DNA of 12,886 bases, taken from NCBI RefSeq assembly GCF_006345805.1, contig NW_021826352.1, positions 1 through 12,886 on the forward strand, written 5' to 3'. The notes below the pieces were generated by a model. That model did not search any database and was not told where the DNA came from. It saw only the letters and a program-made list of their open reading frames with translations. How positions within the stretch are numbered: position 1 is the stretch's first letter; each line of letters opens with the position of its first letter. The translations under genes were made by a program, and so were the position numbers. Below are positions 1 to 9,851 of the stretch, in pieces. The DNA comes from Octopus sinensis (lineage: Eukaryota).

Positions 1-350
1 CGTACTAGTAGGGTATTAAGAGCACCATCTGAGCGTGATCGTTACCAGAGCGGCGCTATCTGGCCTCCATGCCAGTGGCACATAAAAGACACCATTCAAG
101 CGTGATCATTACCAGCATTGCTTACTGGCACCTGTGCCGGTGGCATGTGTAAAATATTTGAGCAAGGTCGTTGCCAGTGCCACTGGACTGGCCCACGTGC
201 CAGTGGCACGTAAAGGCACCCAATACGCTCTCAGAGTGGTTGGCGTTAGGAAGGGCATCCAGCTGTAGAAACTCTGGTGCAGCCATCTGGTTCACCAGCC
301 CTCAGTCAAAATCGTCTAACACATGCTAGCATGGAGAGCAGGCATTAAAC
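1..350 (+). mobile_element. 3' UTR/tail fragment of an RTE-clade non-LTR retroelement (continues beyond the window start)
   Basis: Reverse-complement match to 3380-3800, which is attached to a recognisable RTE ORF. Shared motifs are GAGTGGTTGGCGTTAGGAAGGGCATCCAGCTGTAGAAAC, CATGCTRGCATGGA, and ~60-65 bp sub-repeats containing GCCRGTGGCAYRTAAAA. Confidence 0.85.
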
Positions 351-353
351 TTG

Positions 354-424
354 ATATATATATATATATATACTATATTATATATAATCTATATATTATA
401 TATATATATATAATATAAATAAAT
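354..424. repeat. (TA)n-rich microsatellite
   Basis: Direct reading. Confidence 0.95.
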
Positions 425-457
425 AAATTGTGAAGCATGACTGTCACCACTAATACA

Positions 458-502
458 TGAACCTGAAGATTGCAGAATTTAATGCATGAAAGTACTAGTT
501 CA
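458..502 (+). ncRNA. Minimal type I hammerhead ribozyme motif (Penelope-like element type)
   Basis: TGAAC (stem I, 458-462), CTGAAGA (463-469), t, TGCA-gaatttaa-TGCA, t (stem II), GAAA (488-491), GTAC, TA, GTTCA (stem I', 498-502). Stem III is the palindrome AGTACT and the predicted cut is after CUA at 497. The innermost stem II position is a U-U mismatch. Confidence 0.8.
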
Positions 503-735
503 ATCAGAATGAACATTTAACATTCTACTATTTTATTTTATTTTATTTCATTATATTATCTTATATCATTATAAGATTGTAAATAAAACATGAAATCAGA
601 CAAGGTTGGAATTCCTTTTATTAATATATTCTTCTATACACAATCACACACACCCATATATATATATATCTATATATATAAATATATAAGAGTGTTGTAG
701 TTTGCTAGAAGCATCATAGTATGAAAGAAGGGGGA

Positions 736-930
736 GAAAAGGGAAAATAGAAAAGCTTTTGATAATACAAAAAGTTTCACAAAACCTTCATATTTCAGGC
801 ATAAAGGCCCGTCCCCAAAAGAAAAGCAGTCTGGGAAACATCTAATTGTACTGAAACTGGCCAAAACAAAAGGTTTTGGCAAACTTTCCGCATTCTCAGA
901 AGCTTTCTCATTTTCGTTTTTTCCCTTTTC
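736..930. repeat. Degenerate inverted-repeat (fold-back) element between TA microsatellites
   Basis: The left arm GAAAAGGGAAAATAGAAAAGCTTTTGATAATACAAAAAGTTTCACAAAACCTT resembles the reverse complement of the right arm (GAAAAGGGAAAAAACGAAAATGAGAAAGCTTCTGAGAATGCGGAAAGTTTGCCAAAACCTT). Confidence 0.65.
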
Positions 931-1009
<79 letters not shown>

Positions 1010-1013
1010 TATA
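931..1013. repeat. (TA)n(TG)n(TA)n compound microsatellite
   Basis: Direct reading. Confidence 0.95.
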
Positions 1014-1071
1014 TCATTACAGATATAGGGTGAAGGATAATTAATTTAATAAAATCAACAAATTTCAACTA

Positions 1072-1335
1072 GGCGCAGAAGTGGCTGTGTGGAAAGTAGC
1101 TTGTTTACCAACCACATGGTTCCGGGATCAGTCCCACTGCATGGCACCTTGGACAAGTGTCTTCTACTATAGCCCCGGGCCGACCAATGCCTTGTGAGTG
1201 GATTTGGTAGATGGAAACTGAAAGAAGCTTGTCGTATATATGTATATATATATATGTGTGTGTGTGTTTGTGTGTCTGTGTTTGTCTCCCTATCATTGCT
1301 TGACAACCGATGCTGGTGTGTTTACGTCCCCGTCA
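1072..1335 (+). mobile_element. tRNA-derived SINE, family A, 3'-truncated
   Basis: The head GGCGCAGAAGTGGCTGTGTGG has A-box-like and GGATCAGTCCC B-box-like motifs, followed by an internal (TA)(TG) tract. Colinear with the reverse complement of 8481-8887. Confidence 0.9.
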
Positions 1336-1507
1336 GACATAAACACACCAGCATCGGTTGTCAAGCAATGATAGGGGGGAAAAACACAGACACACAAACA
1401 TATACACACACATACATATATACATATATACAACAGGCTTCTTTCAGTTGAACCCGGAACCATGTGGTTGGTAAGCAAGCTACTTACCACACAACCACTC
1501 CTGCGCC
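1336..1507 (-). mobile_element. tRNA-derived SINE, family A, 3'-truncated and internally deleted, tail-to-tail with the previous copy
   Basis: Reverse complement of 1072-1130 and ~1217-1328. The middle is deleted at TTTCAGT|TGAACCCGG (~1448). Confidence 0.9.
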
Positions 1508-1601
1508 TATGTAAAGTGCAATATTGATGATAAGGGGAATGAAAAATTTGAACATTCAAACTTTGGGTTTATTTAACAGTTGGTTTAATCATAATAATTG
1601 T

Positions 1602-1690
1602 CCAACATATGTTTCGATCACATTAACTGCTTATTGTTGCATAGTTATATGCAACGATTTATGCATTATTAGTTTGATCTTTTCAGTGTG
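1602..1690 (-). ncRNA. Degenerate hammerhead-like motif with long stem II
   Basis: The minus strand reads CACA-CTGAAAA-GATCA-[extension with the hairpin GTTGCATA-taac-TATGCAAC]-TGATC-GAAA-CATATGT. G8 is replaced by A and stem I is short or ambiguous. Confidence 0.5.
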
Positions 1691-1817
1691 TATAGAAAGG
1701 AGATTGTTTGAAAAGGCATTTTCCTCCGTTAGTATCAAAATTGTATACGACCATGTGTCTATTGTTGGTGATTTTTTTTCCTCCATCTTCCCTTCCTTGG
1801 ATCTTTCCTTTTCCTAT

Positions 1818-1852
1818 GTTTCCGACGAAGAGCTCCACTTGAAACGTTAAAT
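1818..1852 (+). ncRNA. Degenerate minimal hammerhead-like motif
   Basis: GTTT-CCGACGA-AGAGCTCCACTT-GAAA-CG-TT-AAAT. The core differs from CUGANGA at one position, stem III has the palindrome ACGT, and stem II is weakened. It is followed by a ~90 nt tail and (TA)n. Confidence 0.5.
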
Positions 1853-1938
1853 CCTCCTTCTTTCCTTCTTTCCTGAGCGTCCAATAATACTATATTTGTT
1901 CCACGTCCTCACGTTGTTGTGTTTTCATGTTTGGATTA

Positions 1939-1974
<36 letters not shown>

Positions 1975-1977
1975 TAC

Positions 1978-2138
1978 ATACGATGGGCTTCTTTCAGTTT
2001 CTGACTACCAAATCCTCTCACAAGTCTTTGGTCAGCCCTAGGCTATAGTAGAAAACACTTGCCCAAGGTGGCACACTGTAGGACTGAACCGAGAACCATG
2101 TGGTTGTGATGCAAGCTCTGTAACCACACAGCCACAAC
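1978..2138 (-). mobile_element. tRNA-derived SINE, family A, diverged head half
   Basis: Colinear with 8732-8885 (CGAYRGGCTTCTTTCAGTTTC...GGACTGAAC...GAACCATGTGGTTG...ACCACACAGCCAC). Confidence 0.88.
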
Positions 2139-2223
2139 TAGTTAACAGATGAGATATACATATCTCAATAGGGAGAAAGCCAAGACTGAAAATATTCAGA
2201 CATTAAACATTCATGAATAAGTA

Positions 2224-2786
2224 TTAAGTTGTCCGGAATTCCTGAGCGTTTTCATGCTAAATCTTTTAACACTTCATTGAACACACCTGAGACATAAAAA
2301 AGATTAAAACTTTGGTGTTACTTGAAGCGGTTCTGCATCTTTTTTTTTGTTTTCGACAGAAAATAGATTTATCTCTCATTTCAGTTCCCCTTTATTAACA
2401 TTTGAAATGGAGAACCAAATGTTTCATATTCGCGTTGTAATGCTTTTCTTTTTTTCAAAACAAAGGAGGAAATGCCGCAAAGACTTTCAGAAACCTTTGT
2501 GAAGATTATGTTGATGATGATGATGCTGTAGGGGAATCAACTGTTTGAATGTGGTTTGCAAAGTTTAAAGCTGGGGAGTTTAGCTTGGAAGATGACGGTC
2601 GCAGAGAGGGAAGACCTTCAGAATTGGATGAGGATGCTTTGAAGGCAGAAATCGAAGGAAACTCAAATATCACAAAGGGAGAACTTGCAGAGGGGTCGCA
2701 AGTTTCTGAAAGTGTGCTTCATAAAGGAGATCCCTTTTTGCATCTTAAAAAAAAAAAAACAGCTCAGAACTTTCTGGACAACCTAA
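2224..2786 (+). mobile_element. Internally deleted mariner (Tc1/mariner) DNA transposon
   Basis: Imperfect terminal inverted repeats TTAAGTTGTCCGGAATTCCTGAGCGTTTT and (reverse complement) TTAGGTTGTCCAGAAAGTTCTGAGCTGTTTT, flanked by TA at 2222-2223 and 2787-2788. Contains a transposase N-terminus remnant. Confidence 0.9.
2407..2696 (+). pseudogene. Mariner transposase N-terminal HTH DNA-binding region remnant
   Basis: MENQMFHIRVVMLFFF /frameshift/ NKGGNAAKTFRNLCEDY..AVGESTV*MWFAKFKAGEFSLEDDGRREGRPSELDEDALKAEIEGNSNITKGELAE matches the mariner WF.KF..G..SLED..R.GRP motif. It has a stop and a frameshift, and no DD34D domain. Confidence 0.88.
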
Positions 2787-2803
2787 TACACAAATATTCA
2801 CAT

Positions 2804-3017
2804 ATTCTTTACTACTTTTGGCACAAGGCCTGAAATTTTGGGGGAGGGATCCAGTCAATTAGATCGACCCCAGTACGCAACCGGTACTTAATTTATCGAC
2901 CCCAAAAGGATGAAAGGCAAAGTCAACTTCAGCAGAATTTGAACTCAGAAGGTGAATACAGACGAAATACTGCCAAGCATTTCGCCCGGTATGCTAACGT
3001 TTCTGCCAACTCACCAA
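2804..3017 (-). mobile_element. tRNA-derived SINE, family C, near full length
   Basis: The minus strand reads TGGCAGAAACGTTAGCATACCGGGCGAAATGC...TTCTGAGTTCAAATTC (B box)...GACTTTGCCTTTCATCCTTTTGGGGTCGATAAATTAAGTACC, homologous to 4490-4630. It ends in AGTAAAGAAT. Confidence 0.88.
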
Positions 3018-3124
3018 CTTCAAATATTTCCATAGTAACCGAACATGCTTCCACAAAGAACACAAGAAAATTCCTCACCTGAAATTCTTGCATCTTTCTT
3101 TTCTCTCTAATTACCTTCCTTTTA

Positions 3125-3362
3125 TTTGTTTATTTGTTTCAGTCATTTGACAGTGGCCAGGCTGGAGCACTGCCTTAAACGTCTTTAGTCAAAGAAATCG
3201 ACACCAAGACTTATTCTTTGTAAGCCTAGTACTTATTTTACTGGCCTCGTTTGCTGAACCACTAGGTTACGGAGATGTAAACACACCAACATCGGTTATC
3301 AAGTGATGGTAGGGAGACAAACACAGACACAAAGACATATATACATATACATATATATACAT
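3125..3362 (-). mobile_element. tRNA-derived SINE, family A, tail half (head not present)
   Basis: TTGTTTCAGTCATTTGAC...GCTGGAGCAC...GACTTATTCTTTGTAAGCC...GTAAACACACCARCATCGGTT is colinear with 8505-8730. Confidence 0.88.
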
Positions 3363-3366
3363 AATA

Positions 3367-4482
3367 TCATCATCATCATACTCCGCTTTCCATGCTGGCA
3401 TGGGTTGGACGGTTTGACTGAGGACTGGTGAGCCAGATGGCTGCACCAGACTCCAATCTGATCTGGCAAAGTTTCTACAGCTGGATGCCCTTCCTAACGC
3501 CAACCACTCCGAGAGTGTAGTGGGTGCTTTTACATGCCACCGGCACGAGGGCCAGTCAGGTGGTACTGGCAATGGCCACACTCAAATGGTGTTTTTTACA
3601 TGCCACATGTGCAGGACCCAGTCCAGTAGCACTGGCAACACCCTCGCTTGAATCTTGTTTTCCACATACCACCAGCACAAGTACCAGTAAGGCGATGCTG
3701 GTAACAATCAAGCTTGAATGGTGTTTTTTACATGCCACCAGCACAGGGCCAGTCAGCAGCCCTGGCAACAATCACACTCGGATGGTGCCCTTAGCGTTCC
3801 ACTAGCATTGATGCCAGTCATGCAGTGCTGTCACCGAATTTGATTTTGATTTCACTCGCATCAACAGGTCTTCACAAGCAGAGTTTTAGTGTCCAAAGAA
3901 GGAAAAGGTATGCATAAGTGGGCTGATTACGCCCCTGGCATAGGCCATGAGGTTATGGTCACATTTGGCTTGCCGGGTCTTATCAAGCACAGCATATTTC
4001 CAAAAGTCTTGGTCACTAGTCATTGCCTCGATGAGGCCTAATGTTCGAAGGTCATGCTTCACCACTTCATCCCAGGTCTTCCTGGGTCTACCTCTTCCAC
4101 AGATTCACTCAACTGCTAGGGTGTGGCACTTTTTCACACAGCTGTCCTCATCCATTCTTGCGACATGACCATACCAGTGCAGTCGTCTCTCTTGCACACT
4201 ATATCTGATGCTTCTTAGGTCCAACTTTTCTCTCAAGGTACCTACACTCTGTCGAGTATGCACACTGACATTACATATCCATCAGATCATACTGGTTTCA
4301 TTCCTTGTGAGCTTATGCATGTCCTCAGCAGTCACAGCCCATGTTTCACTGCCATGTAGTATGGCTGTTCGTACACAAGCGTCATACAGTCTACCTTTTA
4401 CTCTGAGCGAGAGGCCCTTTGTCACCAGCAGAGGCAAGAGCTCTCTGAACTTTGCTCAGGCTATTCTTATTCCAGCAGCTAT
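3367..4482 (-). mobile_element. 5'-truncated RTE-clade LINE with long sub-repeated 3' UTR and (ATG)n tail
   Basis: ORF2 C-terminal remnant at ~3960-4482, 3' UTR at ~3380-3955, and tail TCATCATCATCAT at 3367-3379 on the + strand. Confidence 0.92.
3960..4482 (-). pseudogene. RTE retrotransposon reverse-transcriptase protein C-terminal remnant
   Basis: A single frame reads AAGIRIA*AKFRELLPLLVTKGLSLRVKGRLYDACVRTAILHGSETW...RRLHWYGHVARMDEDSCVKK...GRGRPRKTWDEVVKHDL, with the RTE-type GSETW, RL.W.GHV.RM and GRP.KTW motifs. In-frame TGA stops lie at 4456-4458, 4282-4284 and 4105-4107. Confidence 0.92.
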
Positions 4483-4489
4483 AAAAAAG

Positions 4490-4894
4490 GGGCAGAAACG
4501 CTAGCATGCCGGGCGAAATGCTTAGCAGTATTTCATCTGCCTCTACGTTCTGAGTTCAAATTCCACCGAGGTCGACTTTGCCTTTCATCCTTTTGGGGTT
4601 GATTAAATAAGTGCCAGTTACGCATTGGGGTCAATATAATCGACAATCCGTTTGTCTGTCCTTGTTTGTCCCCTCTATGCTTAGCCCCTTGTGGGTAGTA
4701 AAGAGATAGGTATTTCGTCTGCCGCTACGTTCTGAGTTCAAATTCCACCGAGGTCGACTTTGCCTTTCATCCTTTCGGGGTCGATTAAATAAGTGCCAGT
4801 TACTCACTGGGGTCGATATAATCGACTTAATCCGTTTGTCTGTCCTTGTTTGTCCCCTCTGTGTGTAGCCCCTTGTGGGCAGTAAAGAAACAAG
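4490..4894 (+). mobile_element. tRNA-derived SINE, family C, with tandemly duplicated ~182 bp body
   Basis: Head GGCAGAAACGCTAGCATGCCGGGCGAAATGC, then unit 1 (4528-4709) and unit 2 (4710-4894). Each unit has the B box GAGTTCAAATTCC and the tail AGCCCCTTGTGGGYAGTAAAGA. Confidence 0.9.
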
Positions 4895-5045
4895 ATATAT
4901 AAATATGTGTAGCTAAAGATTGCATGAAAATGTACATAAACAGTTTACGAGTGACACCATAGAATGAGTTAGGCTAGCATTTTGTTTAGGGTAACATTCT
5001 GTTTCAGGTAGCATTCTCTTTAGGGTTCTGTCAGTCCATGTAGAC

Positions 5046-5279
5046 TCCTGTTTCTCAACCATTTTTTGTCTATGAGTCCCTTTGATTTCTAGTTTACTCA
5101 ACTATTTGAAAAATTCTATCACATCTTTAGAATTAAATATTACAAGGAATTGTATTTTAAAAATTGTTAAAATATTTTGTGCATTTTAGAAGTAAAATCA
5201 ATTTATTTCAGATAAATTTTAACAACAAAATCTTATGTAGACCGTCAAGGGCCGTACAGAGCCCGGATTTGAACCATTG
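5046..5279. mobile_element. Old hAT-type MITE
   Basis: The ends TCCTGTTTCTCAACC and TTTGAACCATTG resemble hAT CAGTGKTTCTCAA termini. The 8-bp flanks ATGTAGAC (5038-5045) and ATATGGAC (5280-5287) match at 6 of 8 positions, consistent with a decayed 8-bp TSD. The interior is AT-rich and non-coding. Confidence 0.6.
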
Positions 5280-5371
5280 ATATGGACCAAGGCAGTGTAG
5301 GCTACAGTAAGGAAGAGTTAGGGTTAGGTAGTTTGTGGCAGATGAAATAGTATAGTATTGTGTAGCCCTGC

Positions 5372-5392
5372 ATATATATATATATATATATA

Positions 5393-5423
<31 letters not shown>
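5372..5423. repeat. (TA)n microsatellite
   Basis: Direct reading. Confidence 0.95.
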
Positions 5424-5426
<3 letters not shown>

Positions 5427-5518
5427 TCAGCAAAATTTAGATTCAGATGAATATGGTACTTAAATTAAAGGCACCAGAATTTGGTATGGTATTAACCATA
5501 TAAATCAAATGGGGAGAT

Positions 5519-5658
5519 TATAATCAAAATAAGCAACAAGGATATCCAAGGTATTGTAGTACAATCGTTTCATGCTACTTCATTTTATTTAATAAAATGA
5601 AGTAGCATGAAACGATTGTACTACAATACCTTGGATATTCCTTGTTGCTTATTTTGAT

Positions 5659-5662
<4 letters not shown>
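5519..5662. repeat. Near-perfect ~144 bp palindrome carrying a hammerhead 3' half in each arm
   Basis: Arms of ~71 bp around a single T at 5590, with one 1-nt indel. An arm contains GTAGCAT-GAAA-C-GATT-GTA-CTAC (5602-5624). Confidence 0.9.
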
Positions 5663-5705
<43 letters not shown>

Positions 5706-6129
5706 AAAAATAGAAGCTGAAAATGCACTGAGAATGGTTCAAATATTTTTTATTAAACTGGTTTCAAGTTTACACTGATTGTCGTAGCTGTTTGAAGTTG
5801 CCTGTTTTTATAGGGAGTTCATAGCTGAAATTAGTAAATGTCTTGAATAGGGTTTGATTGGTAGGGGATAGTCACATGACTAGTCTTAGAAATTTTTGTA
5901 TGTTTTCCTGCTATGTCCAGTCCATGCTTTAGTATGGAGTGACAATGTTTGGTTTGGCTGACACGGTTGACTGAACAAGTCCAAACGATCAATGCTCTGA
6001 GTGTTTTCTGTCAAGTGTTTCTAGAGAATGAACGCATGATTAAGTTTATCACCTTTCATGTGTGTGTGTGCATGTATGTGTGGTAAATTGCTTTTTAGTG
6101 GTGGAGCTCAAAGTAGGTAAAGCTATACA

Positions 6130-6484
6130 CTTTACTCTTTTACTTGTTTCAGTCATTTGACTGCGACCATGCTGGAGCACCGCCTTTAGTCGAGCAACTC
6201 GACCCCGGGATTTATTCTTTTGTAAGCCCAGTCTATCGGTCTCTTTTGCCGAACTGCTAAGTAACGGGGACATAAACACACCAGCATCGGTTGTCAAGCA
6301 ATGCTAGGGGGACAAACACACACAAACACACACACACACATATATACGATGGGCTTCTTTCAGTTCCTGTCTACCAAATTCACTCACAAGGCTTTGGTCG
6401 GCCCGAGGCTATAGTAGAAGGTGCCACTGAACCCGGAACCATGTGGTTGGTAAACAAGCTACTTACCACGCAGCCACTCCTGCA

Positions 6485-6486
<2 letters not shown>
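6130..6486 (-). mobile_element. tRNA-derived SINE, family A, near full length with small internal deletions
   Basis: Colinear with 8481-8887, from the (TTTTACTC) tail to the CAGCCACTCCTGCACC head. Deletions near 6232 and 6420. Confidence 0.92.

Positions 6487-6542
<56 letters not shown>
6487..6542. repeat. Pure (TA)n microsatellite
   Basis: Direct reading. Confidence 0.97.
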
Positions 6543-6545
<3 letters not shown>

Positions 6546-6790
6546 AAGAATGTCTTTAGATAAAAACATCTCTATGTAAATTTTCTCCATTTTCCTCATT
6601 TAAAGTTTATTTAACTACCTATACATTTCGTGATAAACTATTATACTTGGTTTTCTCTGAACGCTGGTATGAACCAGGGAACTAGGATGTGTGTGCATCC
6701 CTTAAGGGACTTTAATTCCTCGACTTATATTTATATATATACATATATATAAATATATGTACACACACACATATATAATATATATATATA

Positions 6791-7203
6791 TAATATTAAT
6801 TAGAGACAAAACCACTATTTTGCAAATCAAACAAAGAAAGACTTAATTCAATACATAAAAAAATTTTAATATAAATTAAATAAAAATATATTCGCCACTA
6901 CAATTGTTTCATGTCTCTTCTCAGGACATTCATCAGGTGGATTTCAGATCTTCTATTTTATTTTAAGTTATGAAGTCTTCATAACTTAAAATAAAATAGA
7001 AGATCTGAAATTATATTTATATTAAAATTTCTCGGATTTAAAATTTCTTCTGATGTATTGATTAAGTCTTTCCTTGTTTGATTTGCAAAATAGTGGTTTT
7101 GTCTCTAATTAATATTATATAATATTTTACTATATATTGGATTCAATCCTAAATCTGATTTTCCCTGTAAATTTGGATTTATTCCCTAATATTTATTATT
7201 ATT
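6791..7203. mobile_element. Fold-back element, probably a Penelope-like retroelement terminal-repeat derivative
   Basis: Outer inverted arms 6791-6856 and 7053-7117, and a perfect inner palindrome 6941-7011 (35-bp arms, centre 6976). A hammerhead lies in the left arm, an unpaired tail at 7118-7203 ends in (ATT)n, and TA tracts flank the element. Confidence 0.7.
6895..6940 (-). ncRNA. Minimal type I hammerhead ribozyme with intact core
   Basis: Minus strand: CCAC, CTGATGA, ATGTC-ctgagaaga-GACAT, GAAA, C-AATT-G, TA, GTGG. All conserved core nucleotides are present, with 4-bp stem I, 5-bp stem II and palindromic stem III ACAATTGT. The predicted GUA cut lies between 6899 and 6898. Confidence 0.88.
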
Positions 7204-7384
7204 ATATATATATATATATATAAATGTATATATATATATATATTTATGTGTGTGTATGTGTGTGTGTGTGTGTATCAAAAGGATATGTTATGATACTATT
7301 CCACATATACAAAAAACAGCCACACCAACAATCCAACATACCCCCATCATCAGCTGTCCCACGGATGTCATTATGGTTTTGATA

Positions 7385-7550
7385 CCTGCGCAGCACCACT
7401 CAATCTGGCAGTGTCAACAGCACTAAAATATGTATAGTAGATGATCCACAAGCATTCAAGCAATCGGAGTCCTCAACTTGTTCCATTAGCCAAAAGGCTT
7501 GCAAGGCACCAGCAGGCCTCAAGAGACACCCTCGTGTCCTTAGAGCATGA
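7385..7550 (+). pseudogene. Possible old RTE-like LINE ORF C-terminus with decayed C2H2 zinc finger
   Basis: 7479-7550 reads CSISQKACKAPAGLKRHPRVLRA*, resembling the terminal C..C.R.C....GL.SH.R.H finger of some RTE elements. Upstream, AQHHSIWQ in another frame resembles A.DR..WR. Confidence 0.4.
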
Positions 7551-7813
7551 CTACCTCTTTATTATACAGGGACATATTATCTGGATGGTTGCCATGGTAG
7601 TTCTCAATTATGTTCCAGTTGTATGACATAATGACTTACTGAAAAATAAAAGAAAATAATTTTGAGGATGTACCAGTCTCCATATTCTCTCTTGTAATGG
7701 TTATTGCATATATATATATATATGTGTGTTTGTGTGTGTGTGTGTGTACACATTATATATTTCATTTTTGTATTTGGTTTGCAAGATTCTTTATGGGAAT
7801 TCGTGTGTTGAAG

Positions 7814-8000
7814 CATATTTTATTGTGTCTGGGGTGGGTCATTCTCTTTTAGTGCCTTATTACTTAACACACTCACTGGTTTGATTTCCACTCATTTACT
7901 TATTTTTTCCTAAAATTTTCGTTACATCTTGCAACCTTTACATTGTGTTAAATAATAAGGCACTAAAAGAGAATGACTCTACCCAGATGCAATAAAATGT
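7814..8000. repeat. Fold-back element with ~56 bp diverged inverted arms and a truncated hammerhead-like motif in the spacer
   Basis: Arms 7814-7871 and 7944-8000 (GTCATTCTCTTTTAGTGCCTTATTA / TAATAAGGCACTAAAAGAGAATGAC). The minus strand of 7909-7939 reads AAAG-GTTGCA-aga-TGTAAC-GAAA-ATTTTA-GG. Confidence 0.75.
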
Positions 8001-8172
8001 ATATGTATATATGTATGTATGTATGTATGTATATATATATGTGAGTGTGTATGTATGTATATATGTGTATGTATGTATGTATGTATGTATGTATGTATGT
8101 ATGTATGTATGTGTGTATGTGTGTGTGTGTATGTATGTATGTATTTATGTGTGTATGTATGTATGCATGCAT
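8000..8172. repeat. (TATG)n/(TG)n microsatellite
   Basis: Direct reading. Confidence 0.95.
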
Positions 8173-8361
8173 GAATAGTTCCAAGCTATATCTGATTGAT
8201 GATACCCTGGGAAACATCATCAGCGATGTTTCTTGGCTGTCATGCAGTTTCTGGTCTTTCAACACCAGACCTTCCACATCAAAAGGTTGTCCCAACTGGA
8301 TTTCCTCAAGTCCCAGCTCGCATCCTAGGTGGCAGTAGCCCACAGAAATGTCCTCTTCATG

Positions 8362-8380
8362 CAACGCCACCTAGTGGCCA
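8362..8380 (-). promoter_or_regulatory. Candidate CTCF binding motif
   Basis: Minus strand TGGCCACTAGGTGGCGTTG against the bilaterian CTCF consensus TGGCCASYAGRKGGCRSYR. Confidence 0.45.
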
Positions 8381-8480
8381 TCTTTACAGATACCACTTTA
8401 CTCTATACCTAATCAGAGCTTTACCAATCGAACTTACCATGTCACTCTGGCAGCTTTCATTTCCACACTGCTCCGTACAT

Positions 8481-8887
8481 ACTCTTTACTCTTTTACTCT
8501 TTTACTTGTTTCAGTCATTTGACTGCAGCCATGCTGGAGCACCGCCTTTAATCAAGCAACTCGACCCCGGGACTTATTCTTTTGTAAGCCCAGTACTTAT
8601 TCTATTGGTCACTTTTGCCGAACTGCTAAGTGAAGGGGACGTAAACACACCAGCATCGGTTGTCAAGCAATGCTAGGGGGACAAACACAGACACACAAAA
8701 CACATACACACACACACATATATACATATATACGACAGGCTTCTTTCAGTTTCCGTCTACCAAATCCACTCACAAGGCTTTGGTCGGCCTGAGGCTATAG
8801 AAGACACTTGCCCTAGGTGCCATGCAGTGGGACTGAACACGGAACCATGTGGTTGGTAAACAAGCAACTTACCACACAGCCACTCCT
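8481..8887 (-). mobile_element. tRNA-derived SINE, family A, essentially full length
   Basis: On the minus strand: head AGGAGTGGCTGTGTGG, B-box-like GTTCAGTCCC, an internal TA/TG tract, a 3' body, and a (GAGTAAAA)n tail. Confidence 0.93.
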
Positions 8888-8935
8888 ATCACCACTACAA
8901 CCACCATCATCTACCTTTTAGCACGTTTTTATATT

Positions 8936-9160
8936 GTCATCGCCATTGTCGTTTAACATCCATTTTTCTCCTCTTGCACAGGTCGGGTAGAATTGGTTGA
9001 GGCACATTCTCTGCAGCTGGATGCTCTTTCCATCACAAACCCTTACTTGCTTCCAAGCAAGGGGAATATTCCGCTATCCCCTCCCCACCGCCCCATCCTC
9101 GCTGGACCTGTTTTGTTATGGAAGACTGGAAATGAAAACCACCGCATACACGAAGACAAG
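8936..9160 (-). mobile_element. Old short retroelement sharing the RTE-type 3' end
   Basis: CAGCTGGATGCTCTTTCCATCACAAACC resembles CAGCTGGATGCCCTTCCTAACGCCAACC (3478-3505). GTCGTTTAACATCC resembles the RTE terminus. Confidence 0.55.
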
Positions 9161-9312
9161 GCTGCACATACACACTTAAGCACACACACACATATACACA
9201 TAAAGGACATCCATGCATGCATATCTATGTATGTATGTATTCATGTATGTATGTATGTATGTATGTATATGTATTTGTTTATGTGTGTGTGTCTGTGTGT
9301 GGAGAGAGCGAG

Positions 9313-9333
9313 ACAGATAAGTAGAAAGATGAA

Positions 9334-9368
<35 letters not shown>

Positions 9369-9369
9369 G

Positions 9370-9421
<52 letters not shown>

Positions 9422-9438
9422 CAGATAGACAGATAGAC

Positions 9439-9481
<43 letters not shown>

Positions 9482-9630
9482 CAGATAGACAGATAGACAG
9501 ATAGATAGATAGATAGATAGATAGACAGATAGATAGATAGACAGATAGACAGATAGACAGATAGACAGATAGATAGATAGATAGATAGATAGACAGATAG
9601 ACAGATAGACAGATAGATAGACAGATAGAC

Positions 9631-9703
<73 letters not shown>

Positions 9704-9754
9704 GATAGAGAGAGAGACAGATAGATAGACAGATAGACAGATAGACAGATAGAC

Positions 9755-9851
<97 letters not shown>

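Follow-up and report, generated by a model that had tools for sequence, protein, structure and literature searches.

The AT-rich islands between positions 425 and 8000 of this DNA raise the question of what kind of element leaves hammerhead ribozyme motifs of differing sequence beside (TA)n tracts. The window, that is the whole stretch of DNA analysed, is 12,886 nt long, and an earlier note had read its islands as distinct short non-coding retroelement families. Here we analyzed seven islands and we consider it probable that each is a 3′ end, truncated on its 5′ side, from one of several families of autonomous Penelope-like elements (PLEs) that target TA in an octopus-like genome, the family being of the Hydra clade for at least the island at 425-655.

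The window was searched with a motif descriptor in which a zero-mismatch hit needs the CUGANGA and GAAA core, UH, and closed stems I and II. Exactly two minimal type I hammerheads were recovered in this way, 463-497 on the forward strand and 6936-6899 on the reverse strand, and these are the complete cores which had been proposed at 458-502 and 6895-6940. When positions 1-8000 were shuffled by dinucleotides in 200-nt blocks, two or more complete motifs were found in 0 of 300 shuffles at any of four settings and a single one in 6 of 300 at the loosest setting, so the real motifs exceed shuffled sequence. As a second control, stems I and II were closed in none of 80 viral loci having only the bare core words. 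The degenerate motifs at 785-822, 1602-1690 and 1818-1852 were found where the earlier note had placed them, and the 3′ halves at 5602-5624 and about 7909-7935 are both in the sequence. The Rfam check suggested with them gave a different result from the descriptor, as a search of the window and three short stretches returned no hammerhead or ribozyme, only hairpin miRNA models and weak snoRNAs. The hammerhead motifs in the window are genuine.

The island of family 1 (425-655, + strand) lies between (TA)n tracts and is read, from sequence and depth, as a PLE 3′ stub with a tail of about 150 nt after the hammerhead. Its complete minimal type I hammerhead (458-502, +) has a stem I of 5 bp (458-462 with 498-502), the core at 463-469, a 4-bp stem II enclosed by U470 and U487, GAAA at 488-491 and the stem III AGTACT, and it is predicted to cut after A497. 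Family 2 (689-930) is a fold-back with arms at 732-788 and 870-925 and a 43-nt one-sided tail at 689-731, whose decayed hammerhead (785-822, − strand; stem III ATAT) was assigned with the majority letters of three DNA runs. We did not retain the idea that the ribozyme cut site marks the beginning of its inverted copy at 870, as the upstream bases could also be a collapsed motif. Two further stubs, both assigned from depth to PLE 3′ ends, are joined 5′-to-5′: family 3 (1510-1745, −), having a hammerhead at 1602-1688 (−) with a 64-nt stem II region, the stem III ACATATGT and a short stem I of about 2 bp, and family 4 (1747-1942, +), which ends in (TA)14 and carries a decayed hammerhead at 1819-1851 (+; stem III ACGT; majority letters).

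The remaining three islands are fold-backs. Family 5 (5423-5662) has arms at 5519-5587 and 5593-5662, a 96-nt one-sided tail, and one hammerhead 3′ half per arm in mirrored positions (5602-5624, + and 5578-5556, −); at 5602, stem III misses being a palindrome by one pair. Family 6 (6771-7200) has arms at 6771-6975 and 6977-7137 with a one-sided tail to 7200, and its right arm is missing about 50 nt, the hammerhead among them. Its complete minimal type I motif (6895-6940, −) has a 4-bp stem I, the core at 6936-6930, a 5-bp stem II and the stem III ACAATTGT, with a predicted cut after 6899. Family 7 (7748-8000) has arms at 7817-7871 and 7944-7998, a 69-nt one-sided tail and, in its left copy, the 3′ half of a hammerhead (about 7935-7909, −); a 25-nt word of this family matched 0 metagenome contigs. 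The five motifs with a named stem III (458-502, 785-822, 1602-1690, 1818-1852 and 6895-6940) share a minimal palindrome there, and for both complete motifs a homodimer through stem III is predicted by RNAcofold. The analysis supports the view that these are PLE-type minimal hammerheads, distributed over several unrelated multi-copy families which sit in TA tracts.

The geometry of the islands points in the same direction. Four islands had been claimed as inverted repeats and all four are, each head-to-head with the 3′ ends outward, and in 4 of 4 an extension is present on one arm only (43, 96, about 65-90 and 69 nt). A (TA)n-type tract adjoins six of the seven islands, in line with the claim that most abut TA microsatellites, and the island at 1510-1745 adjoins a SINE end instead. 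Head-to-head truncated pairs with a one-sided extension are among the features described for PLEs (PMC8557442; PMC11167929). The tails of 43-96 nt in the window exceed the 30-40 nt given in the literature, which counts against the truncated-PLE reading. Partial tandems or pseudo-LTRs were not found in the window, where the stubs are too short to show one.

The same geometry bears on whether the islands are solo remnants of non-LTR retrozymes, which are built of 150-450-nt units in tandem, later cleaved into monomers and closed into circles. The low GC, the type I hammerheads and the lack of coding sequence would suit such an origin, and solo monomers do belong to retrozyme families; yet no island in the window is a tandem array or has head-to-tail hammerhead units, and the motifs here are minimal, with a stem I of 2-5 bp, and are accompanied by fold-backs and tails on one side, whereas the retrozymes treated in PMC7229834 are described as tandem repeats bearing canonical type I motifs. 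We regard a retrozyme origin as very improbable.

Read depth was taken from public DNA runs and covered four of the seven islands (families 1-4), with the depth of single-locus contigs in run X3, about 30-50, as reference; run X9 is RNA by guess only and its contigs are uninformative on strand, ends and level. Each of the four islands is multi-copy, with depth against a single locus pointing to copy numbers between tens and roughly 10^5, so the possibility that they are single-copy fails. Family 1 has a summed depth of 4.3-5.0e5 over 421-522 in run X3 (523-675 being excluded as repeat), and family 4, the most abundant island, reaches 0.7-4.5e6 in the same run, about one tenth of the SINE peak; these correspond, as rough depth-based values, to about 10^4 and 10^5 copies. 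Family 2 has a depth of about 250-1200 and family 3 about 3000-9800 over 1543-1695, with 381 upstream in run X3. Just upstream of the hammerhead the depth in run X3 is 4- to 9-fold lower in three of the four islands, a drop confounded by divergence of the window copy and by junction sequence. In organism E, a related organism, the peak depth of families 1 and 4 is 17- to 53-fold lower than in run X3. Families 2 and 3 show no such difference, and the contrast suggests that families 1 and 4 have undergone recent bursts.

The majority letters of the reads further show what the copies have in common. At 785-822 the letters at 818, 815 and 789 restore C3, A6 and H17 with 74-100% of depth in three DNA runs, and at 1602-1690 they restore G8 (position 1681) and the first stem I pair. 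At 1818-1852 the letters at 1837 and 1840 restore two stem II pairs, including G10.1-C11.1; this restoration concerns stem II only among the 40 of 58 rows listed, position 1823 (U4) lying outside them. Among the same rows, the core of 458-502 has no majority change. The hammerhead core is thus kept across family copies in four of seven islands, and the consensus does not lose it. These letters bear also on the suspicion that the motifs arose by chance or as a by-product of AT DNA rich in hairpins, which the silence of Rfam, the coincidence of the 5602 stem II with the fold-back itself and the shortness of the two 3′ halves might encourage. That in three runs the majority letters at core positions approach the catalytic consensus makes this, together with the shuffles, extremely improbable for the window and refutes it for the four read-covered islands.

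The link to PLEs was made through sequence and position. The stem II of 458-502 flanked by U...U is also present in 14 of 26 Hydra-clade hammerhead rows (Craig 2021 File S2). The 463-491 pattern gave 37 metagenome loci, of which 3 have strictly complete motifs. Just one of these three has an upstream ORF, a low yield that counts against the truncated-PLE reading: contig L111, from another organism, in which an intact 708-aa PLE ORF is followed by the hammerhead 107 nt past the stop and by (TA)n about 115 nt past the motif. The L111 ORF has 2229 homologues and carries RWK, RT, CxxC and CxH motifs; the Hydra-clade protein motifs are RWK, DKT, a CxCX5C linker, CxxC and CxH, and no CCHH. The Hydra clade is reported to target (TA)n, and in octopus Hydra-1_Obim, which is 2507 nt long and prefers (TA)n, the hammerhead is placed at 2403 (Craig 2021, PMC8557442). 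Both Hydra-clade features, a canonical hammerhead near the 3′ end and insertion at (TA)n, are found in the window. Since PLE hammerheads are placed about 100-200 nt from the 3′ end (PMC8557442), heavily 5′-truncated copies keep the ribozyme and no ORF; the ribozyme lies near the 3′ end in L111 and Hydra-1_Obim, and a Naiad stub in the window is likewise ORF-less. Five short words of the hammerhead islands are absent from the Craig 2021 supplement, a point against the truncated-PLE reading, though the supplement itself contains no canonical octopus Penelope, Neptune or Nematis families.

No RT or GIY-YIG coding sequence had been noticed earlier, and profile and tblastn searches for the Hydra clade found no PLE coding remnant in 1-9200; that none adjoins any island counts against the truncated-PLE reading. 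The segment 5704-6060, which on inspection resembled the remnant of a PLE coding region, was not accepted as coding: it gave no Pfam match and no word-search match in two frames, its sole HMMER match was a spurious tandem-repeat protein, and although tblastn matched 25-27 aa of it (E 0.007-0.014) with 2 of 120 Hydra-type proteins, this had no profile support.

The window also contains the 3′-terminal stub of an octopus Naiad PLE (7273-7430, −, 158 nt), which reaches the 3′ end of the consensus, lies next to (TG)n/(TA)n there and has no canonical hammerhead. Three 13-18-nt words of it were found in two Naiad records (PMC8557442 supplement), and by eye 144 of 158 positions (about 91%) are identical to the record preceding Naiad_Ovul, which is probably Naiad_Obim. 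This stub is absent from the earlier list of features. The octopus Naiads described in PMC8557442 (Naiad_Obim, Naiad_Ovul) share 5′ truncation and (TA)n preference with the window, but unlike the ribozyme islands they are characterised there as having no canonical hammerheads, so they account for the stub pattern and not for the islands.

The stand-alone status proposed for these short families is disfavoured, because truncated PLE copies carry the ribozyme without an ORF, as L111, Hydra-1_Obim and the Naiad stub indicate. A narrower form of it is that some of the islands, 425-655 and 1747-1942 above all, are non-autonomous PLE derivatives, short fixed-length units which would retain the hammerhead and the 3′ recognition tail and be copied in trans by PLE protein. 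The two islands have no ORF remnant beside them, their copy numbers are high (SINE-like for family 4), their low level in organism E suggests bursts, and family 1 depth is nearly full and flat up to the 5′ edge, about 35 nt ahead of the motif; such PLE derivatives are described in Chlamydomonas (PMC8557442) and argued for retrozymes, and an octopus annotation has 893 recently active unclassified SINE families. Against this, family 4 depth falls 6-fold towards the 5′ side, an autonomous Naiad left an equally short ORF-less stub in the window, and the motif form of family 1 occurs in the 3′ UTR of the intact PLE of L111. We hold the non-autonomous origin to be unlikely; a similarly small chance is given to the proposal that recently expanded, SINE-like Penelope derivatives of about 200 nt with a dimer-dependent hammerhead, represented by the same two islands, stand among the repeats labelled unclassified SINE or unknown. 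On that proposal, head-to-head pairs and neighbouring stubs could provide ribozyme partners inside host transcripts.

For truncated autonomous PLEs, the following course may be proposed. [quoted passage not shown] Copying would mostly halt after 70-250 nt, by which the hammerhead is kept and the ORF lost, and a fold-back would result when a second short copy is joined 5′-to-5′. Cutting by the ribozyme is predicted for the dimer only, two copies being paired via the palindromic stem III, and it would take place while the parent element exists as a tandem precursor RNA; the hammerhead of a single genomic stub would be a decaying passenger.

The finding is genuine but largely ordinary, as the pattern is already published. 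The density of about 7 in 8 kb, which had been taken as unusual, is not so, for genomes with thousands of such motifs, spread over many families and for the most part single, have been reported before. The suggestion of unannotated families holds in that unannotated or unnamed octopus families are added, to a class and pattern already known and with no new mechanism; Repbase, Dfam or the Zenodo library of PMC13282606 may already hold them. In a literature search outside subscription papers, Craig 2021 (PMC8557442) was the only relevant one on octopus or cephalopod hammerheads. Rfam misses these hammerheads entirely. If the depth-based estimate holds, the hammerhead-derived stubs of octopus number about 10^5, which is in the range of the largest counts in print, such as up to 120 000 for axolotl (PMC7229834), and octopus would be a good genome for asking why PLEs retain a ribozyme which is reported as dispensable for insertion in vitro (PMC11167929).

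Among known systems, non-LTR retrozymes (PMC7229834; Li et al. 2026, 10.64898/2026.07.22.740005) share with the islands the non-coding state, the type I hammerhead and the high copy number, but as described they have tandem arrays, canonical motifs and circular RNA, and the window islands have no tandem arrays. The minimal hammerheads that metazoan PLEs carry in their pseudo-LTRs (Cervera and De la Pena 2014, PMC4209133) share the type I form, a helix I of 4-5 bp, an extra base after A9, a palindromic minimal helix III with predicted dimer activity, many sequence-diverse families per genome, and thousands of mostly single copies with opposite-strand pairs 100-700 bp apart; one window motif differs by its 64-nt helix II region, and octopus is unnamed in the portions of that paper used here. 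From the motif listed for Hydra-1_Obim the seven window families differ, having smaller stem III loops and longer tails and being known from ORF-less copies, while with Hydra-1_Obim and the Hydra clade as described they share the spacing of about 100-200 nt, (TA)n, the short U...U stem II, a near-palindromic stem III and the octopus host.

The window is AT-rich animal DNA, dense in microsatellites. Its repeats include two families resembling SINEs, a fragment of an RTE-type LINE at about 3880-4480, identified by eye from the translation, and a piece of a mariner element that matches Pfam HTH_48. The window also holds two further TA-bounded islands: 4895-5372, unexplained, in which 17-nt repeats occupy 4969-5026 and several words resemble TTAGGG, and 5704-6060, of unassigned kind, having one minus frame with few stops.

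The window was searched with a minimal type I hammerhead descriptor, and exactly two zero-mismatch motifs were found, at 463-497 (+) and 6936-6899 (-), both having a palindromic stem III; these bear out the two complete cores of the earlier note. Two motifs were reached in none of 300 block shuffles of 1-8000 under any of four settings, and equal motif frequency in shuffled DNA, named beforehand as grounds for rejection, is therefore not the case. Stems I and II were closed in none of the 80 viral loci holding bare core words, so the signal is carried by the stems and not by the core words. The Rfam search proposed earlier was run and reported no hammerhead, in the window and in short stretches alike. 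On self-alignment the seven islands (425-655, 689-930, 1510-1745, 1747-1942, 5423-5662, 6771-7200 and 7748-8000) lack alignment to one another. A possible eighth and more decayed hammerhead at 6657-6688 (+), about 40 nt ahead of a TA tract, has a core-like word, a 4-bp hairpin, GAA and a short palindrome, and needs at least three changes.

Four public runs, three of DNA under three organism labels and one guessed to be RNA, supplied contigs that were mapped on 421-1945, which holds four of the seven motifs; the depth of the locus contigs (about 30-50) served as the single-locus reference. In one DNA run, X3, the summed depth peaked at 5.0e5 for 421-522, 1.1e3 for 727-930, 3.0-9.8e3 for 1543-1695 and 4.5e6 for 1747-1945, with 4.9e7 for the SINE. 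Summed depth is not a copy number and gives only orders of magnitude at a likeness of at least 80%, namely about 10^4 copies for the first of the four stretches, tens for the second, about 10^2 for the third and about 10^5 for the fourth. The majority letters restore C3, A6 and H17 of the core at 785-822 (74-100% of depth), G8 (93-97%) and the first stem I pair (62-83%) at 1602-1690, and two stem II pairs at 1818-1852 (83-99%). Among the 40 of 58 rows listed, where some differences are uncounted, no majority change touches the core of 458-502 and restoration of U4 at 1823 does not appear. Given this multi-copy depth and core restoration, the objections that the islands might be single-copy or their consensuses lose the core fail for these four islands, and for four islands a chance origin is excluded.

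Self-alignment confirmed all four islands described as inverted repeats (732-788/870-925, 5519-5587/5593-5662, 6771-6975/6977-7137 and 7817-7871/7944-7998). With the hammerhead strand taken as sense, all four have a 5'-to-5' joint with 3' ends facing the microsatellite and one arm longer by 43-96 nt; the head-to-head arrangement is also present at 1510-1745 and 1747-1942 (families 3 and 4). Published PLE (Penelope-like element) insertions are heavily 5'-truncated, with an inverted and likewise truncated copy next to them and a tail of 30-40 bp on one side (PMC8557442), which has been explained by reverse transcription starting at two internal sites (PMC11167929); the joint and one-sided tail match those of the window, where the tails are longer. 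In X3 the depth upstream of the motif is 4- to 9-fold lower in three of the four islands, as expected from 5' truncation, though confounded by divergence and junction sequence. In family 2 (689-930) alignment of the inverted copy (869-871 vs 788-789) starts at the first base past the predicted cut site, and the bases ahead of it could also be a collapsed motif. The right arm 6977-7137 has lost about 50 nt including the entire hammerhead, with near-identical flanks. The SINE copy at 1070-1510 is itself a fold-back (palindrome 1288-1376, second arm with an internal deletion), and opposite-strand joints in this SINE are frequent in the public runs.

Non-autonomous PLE derivatives are an unlikely reading. 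In its favour, the copy number of family 4 is in the range of a SINE, the depth of family 1 (425-655) holds up as far as its 5' edge, and the peak depth of these two is 17- to 53-fold lower in the run labelled organism E than in X3, families 2 and 3 being level. Retrozymes fit poorly, as tandem units are absent from the window.

The islands, probably truncated stubs of autonomous elements, have a counterpart at 7430-7273 (-), not listed in the earlier note, which has three words of 13-18 nt in common with two octopus consensus records of the Naiad clade, is identical to one of them at 144 of 158 positions (counted by eye), and stops at the consensus 3' end, adjoining a (TG)n/(TA)n tract. This match over 158 nt is a pointer to Octopus, and it indicates that a published autonomous PLE leaves here an ORF-less stub, island-like in size and setting. 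Several mutually crossing complementary segments lie inside the stub, which could represent another kind of structured RNA; it has no match in Rfam, and Naiad_Ovul carries the mark 'HHR_half_core' in the Craig supplement (PMC8557442). Head-to-head with it lies a possible LINE 3' end at 7430-7707 (+), named by eye, whose translation at about 7495-7530 is CxxC...H-like.

Insertion of the islands would begin with nicking of (TA)n and priming close to the RNA 3' end, copying would terminate early, and a second, inverted copy would be added; the ribozyme would act in tandem RNA of the parent element and decay in the stubs. Insertion in vitro is reported to be independent of hammerhead cleavage (PMC11167929).

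The pattern of 463-491 retrieved 37 loci in a metagenome contig scan; three of them satisfied a strict test of completeness, and in another three, all of one assembly, stems I and III close by eye. One locus, L111 (177-2560), has an intact open frame of 708 codons with RWK, RT, CxxC and CxH motifs, a hammerhead 107 nt past the stop and a terminal (TA)n about 115 nt past the motif. Its protein has 2229 homologues and no match in a Pfam search, and the ORF is that of a Hydra-type PLE with a 3' hammerhead. A profile of 119 L111-homologous proteins gave no coding remnant above reversed controls in 1-9200, so the earlier statement that PLE coding sequence is lacking holds for the Hydra clade; 5704-6060 gave nothing beyond a weak match of 25-27 aa to Hydra-type RT.

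Genomes with many families of diverse sequence and with single hammerhead motifs in the thousands are already described (PMC4209133), as are hammerhead-bearing octopus PLEs with TA preference (PMC8557442) and 31 recently active Penelope-like families in an octopus annotation (PMC13282606). No octopus-wide hammerhead survey was found in the literature searched, and the Craig 2021 supplement contains none of five words taken from the islands; the window families may already be in existing repeat libraries. The motifs and families are real, as additional members of an already known class. The Hydra clade inserts almost always in (TA)n, and its octopus member Hydra-1_Obim has a hammerhead at 2403 of 2507 nt (PMC8557442). 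U470 and U487, which flank stem II of 458-502, look like defects, but in Craig 2021 File S2 stem II is likewise flanked by U...U in 14 of the 26 hammerhead rows for the Hydra clade. Five eukaryote-like metagenome contigs (L090, L097, L103, L110, L116) resemble the window in having complete minimal hammerheads with no upstream ORF. For minimal PLE hammerheads, action as dimers has been proposed, a monomer being inactive and dimers weakly active (PMC4209133), and both complete window motifs are likewise predicted to pair as dimers through stem III.
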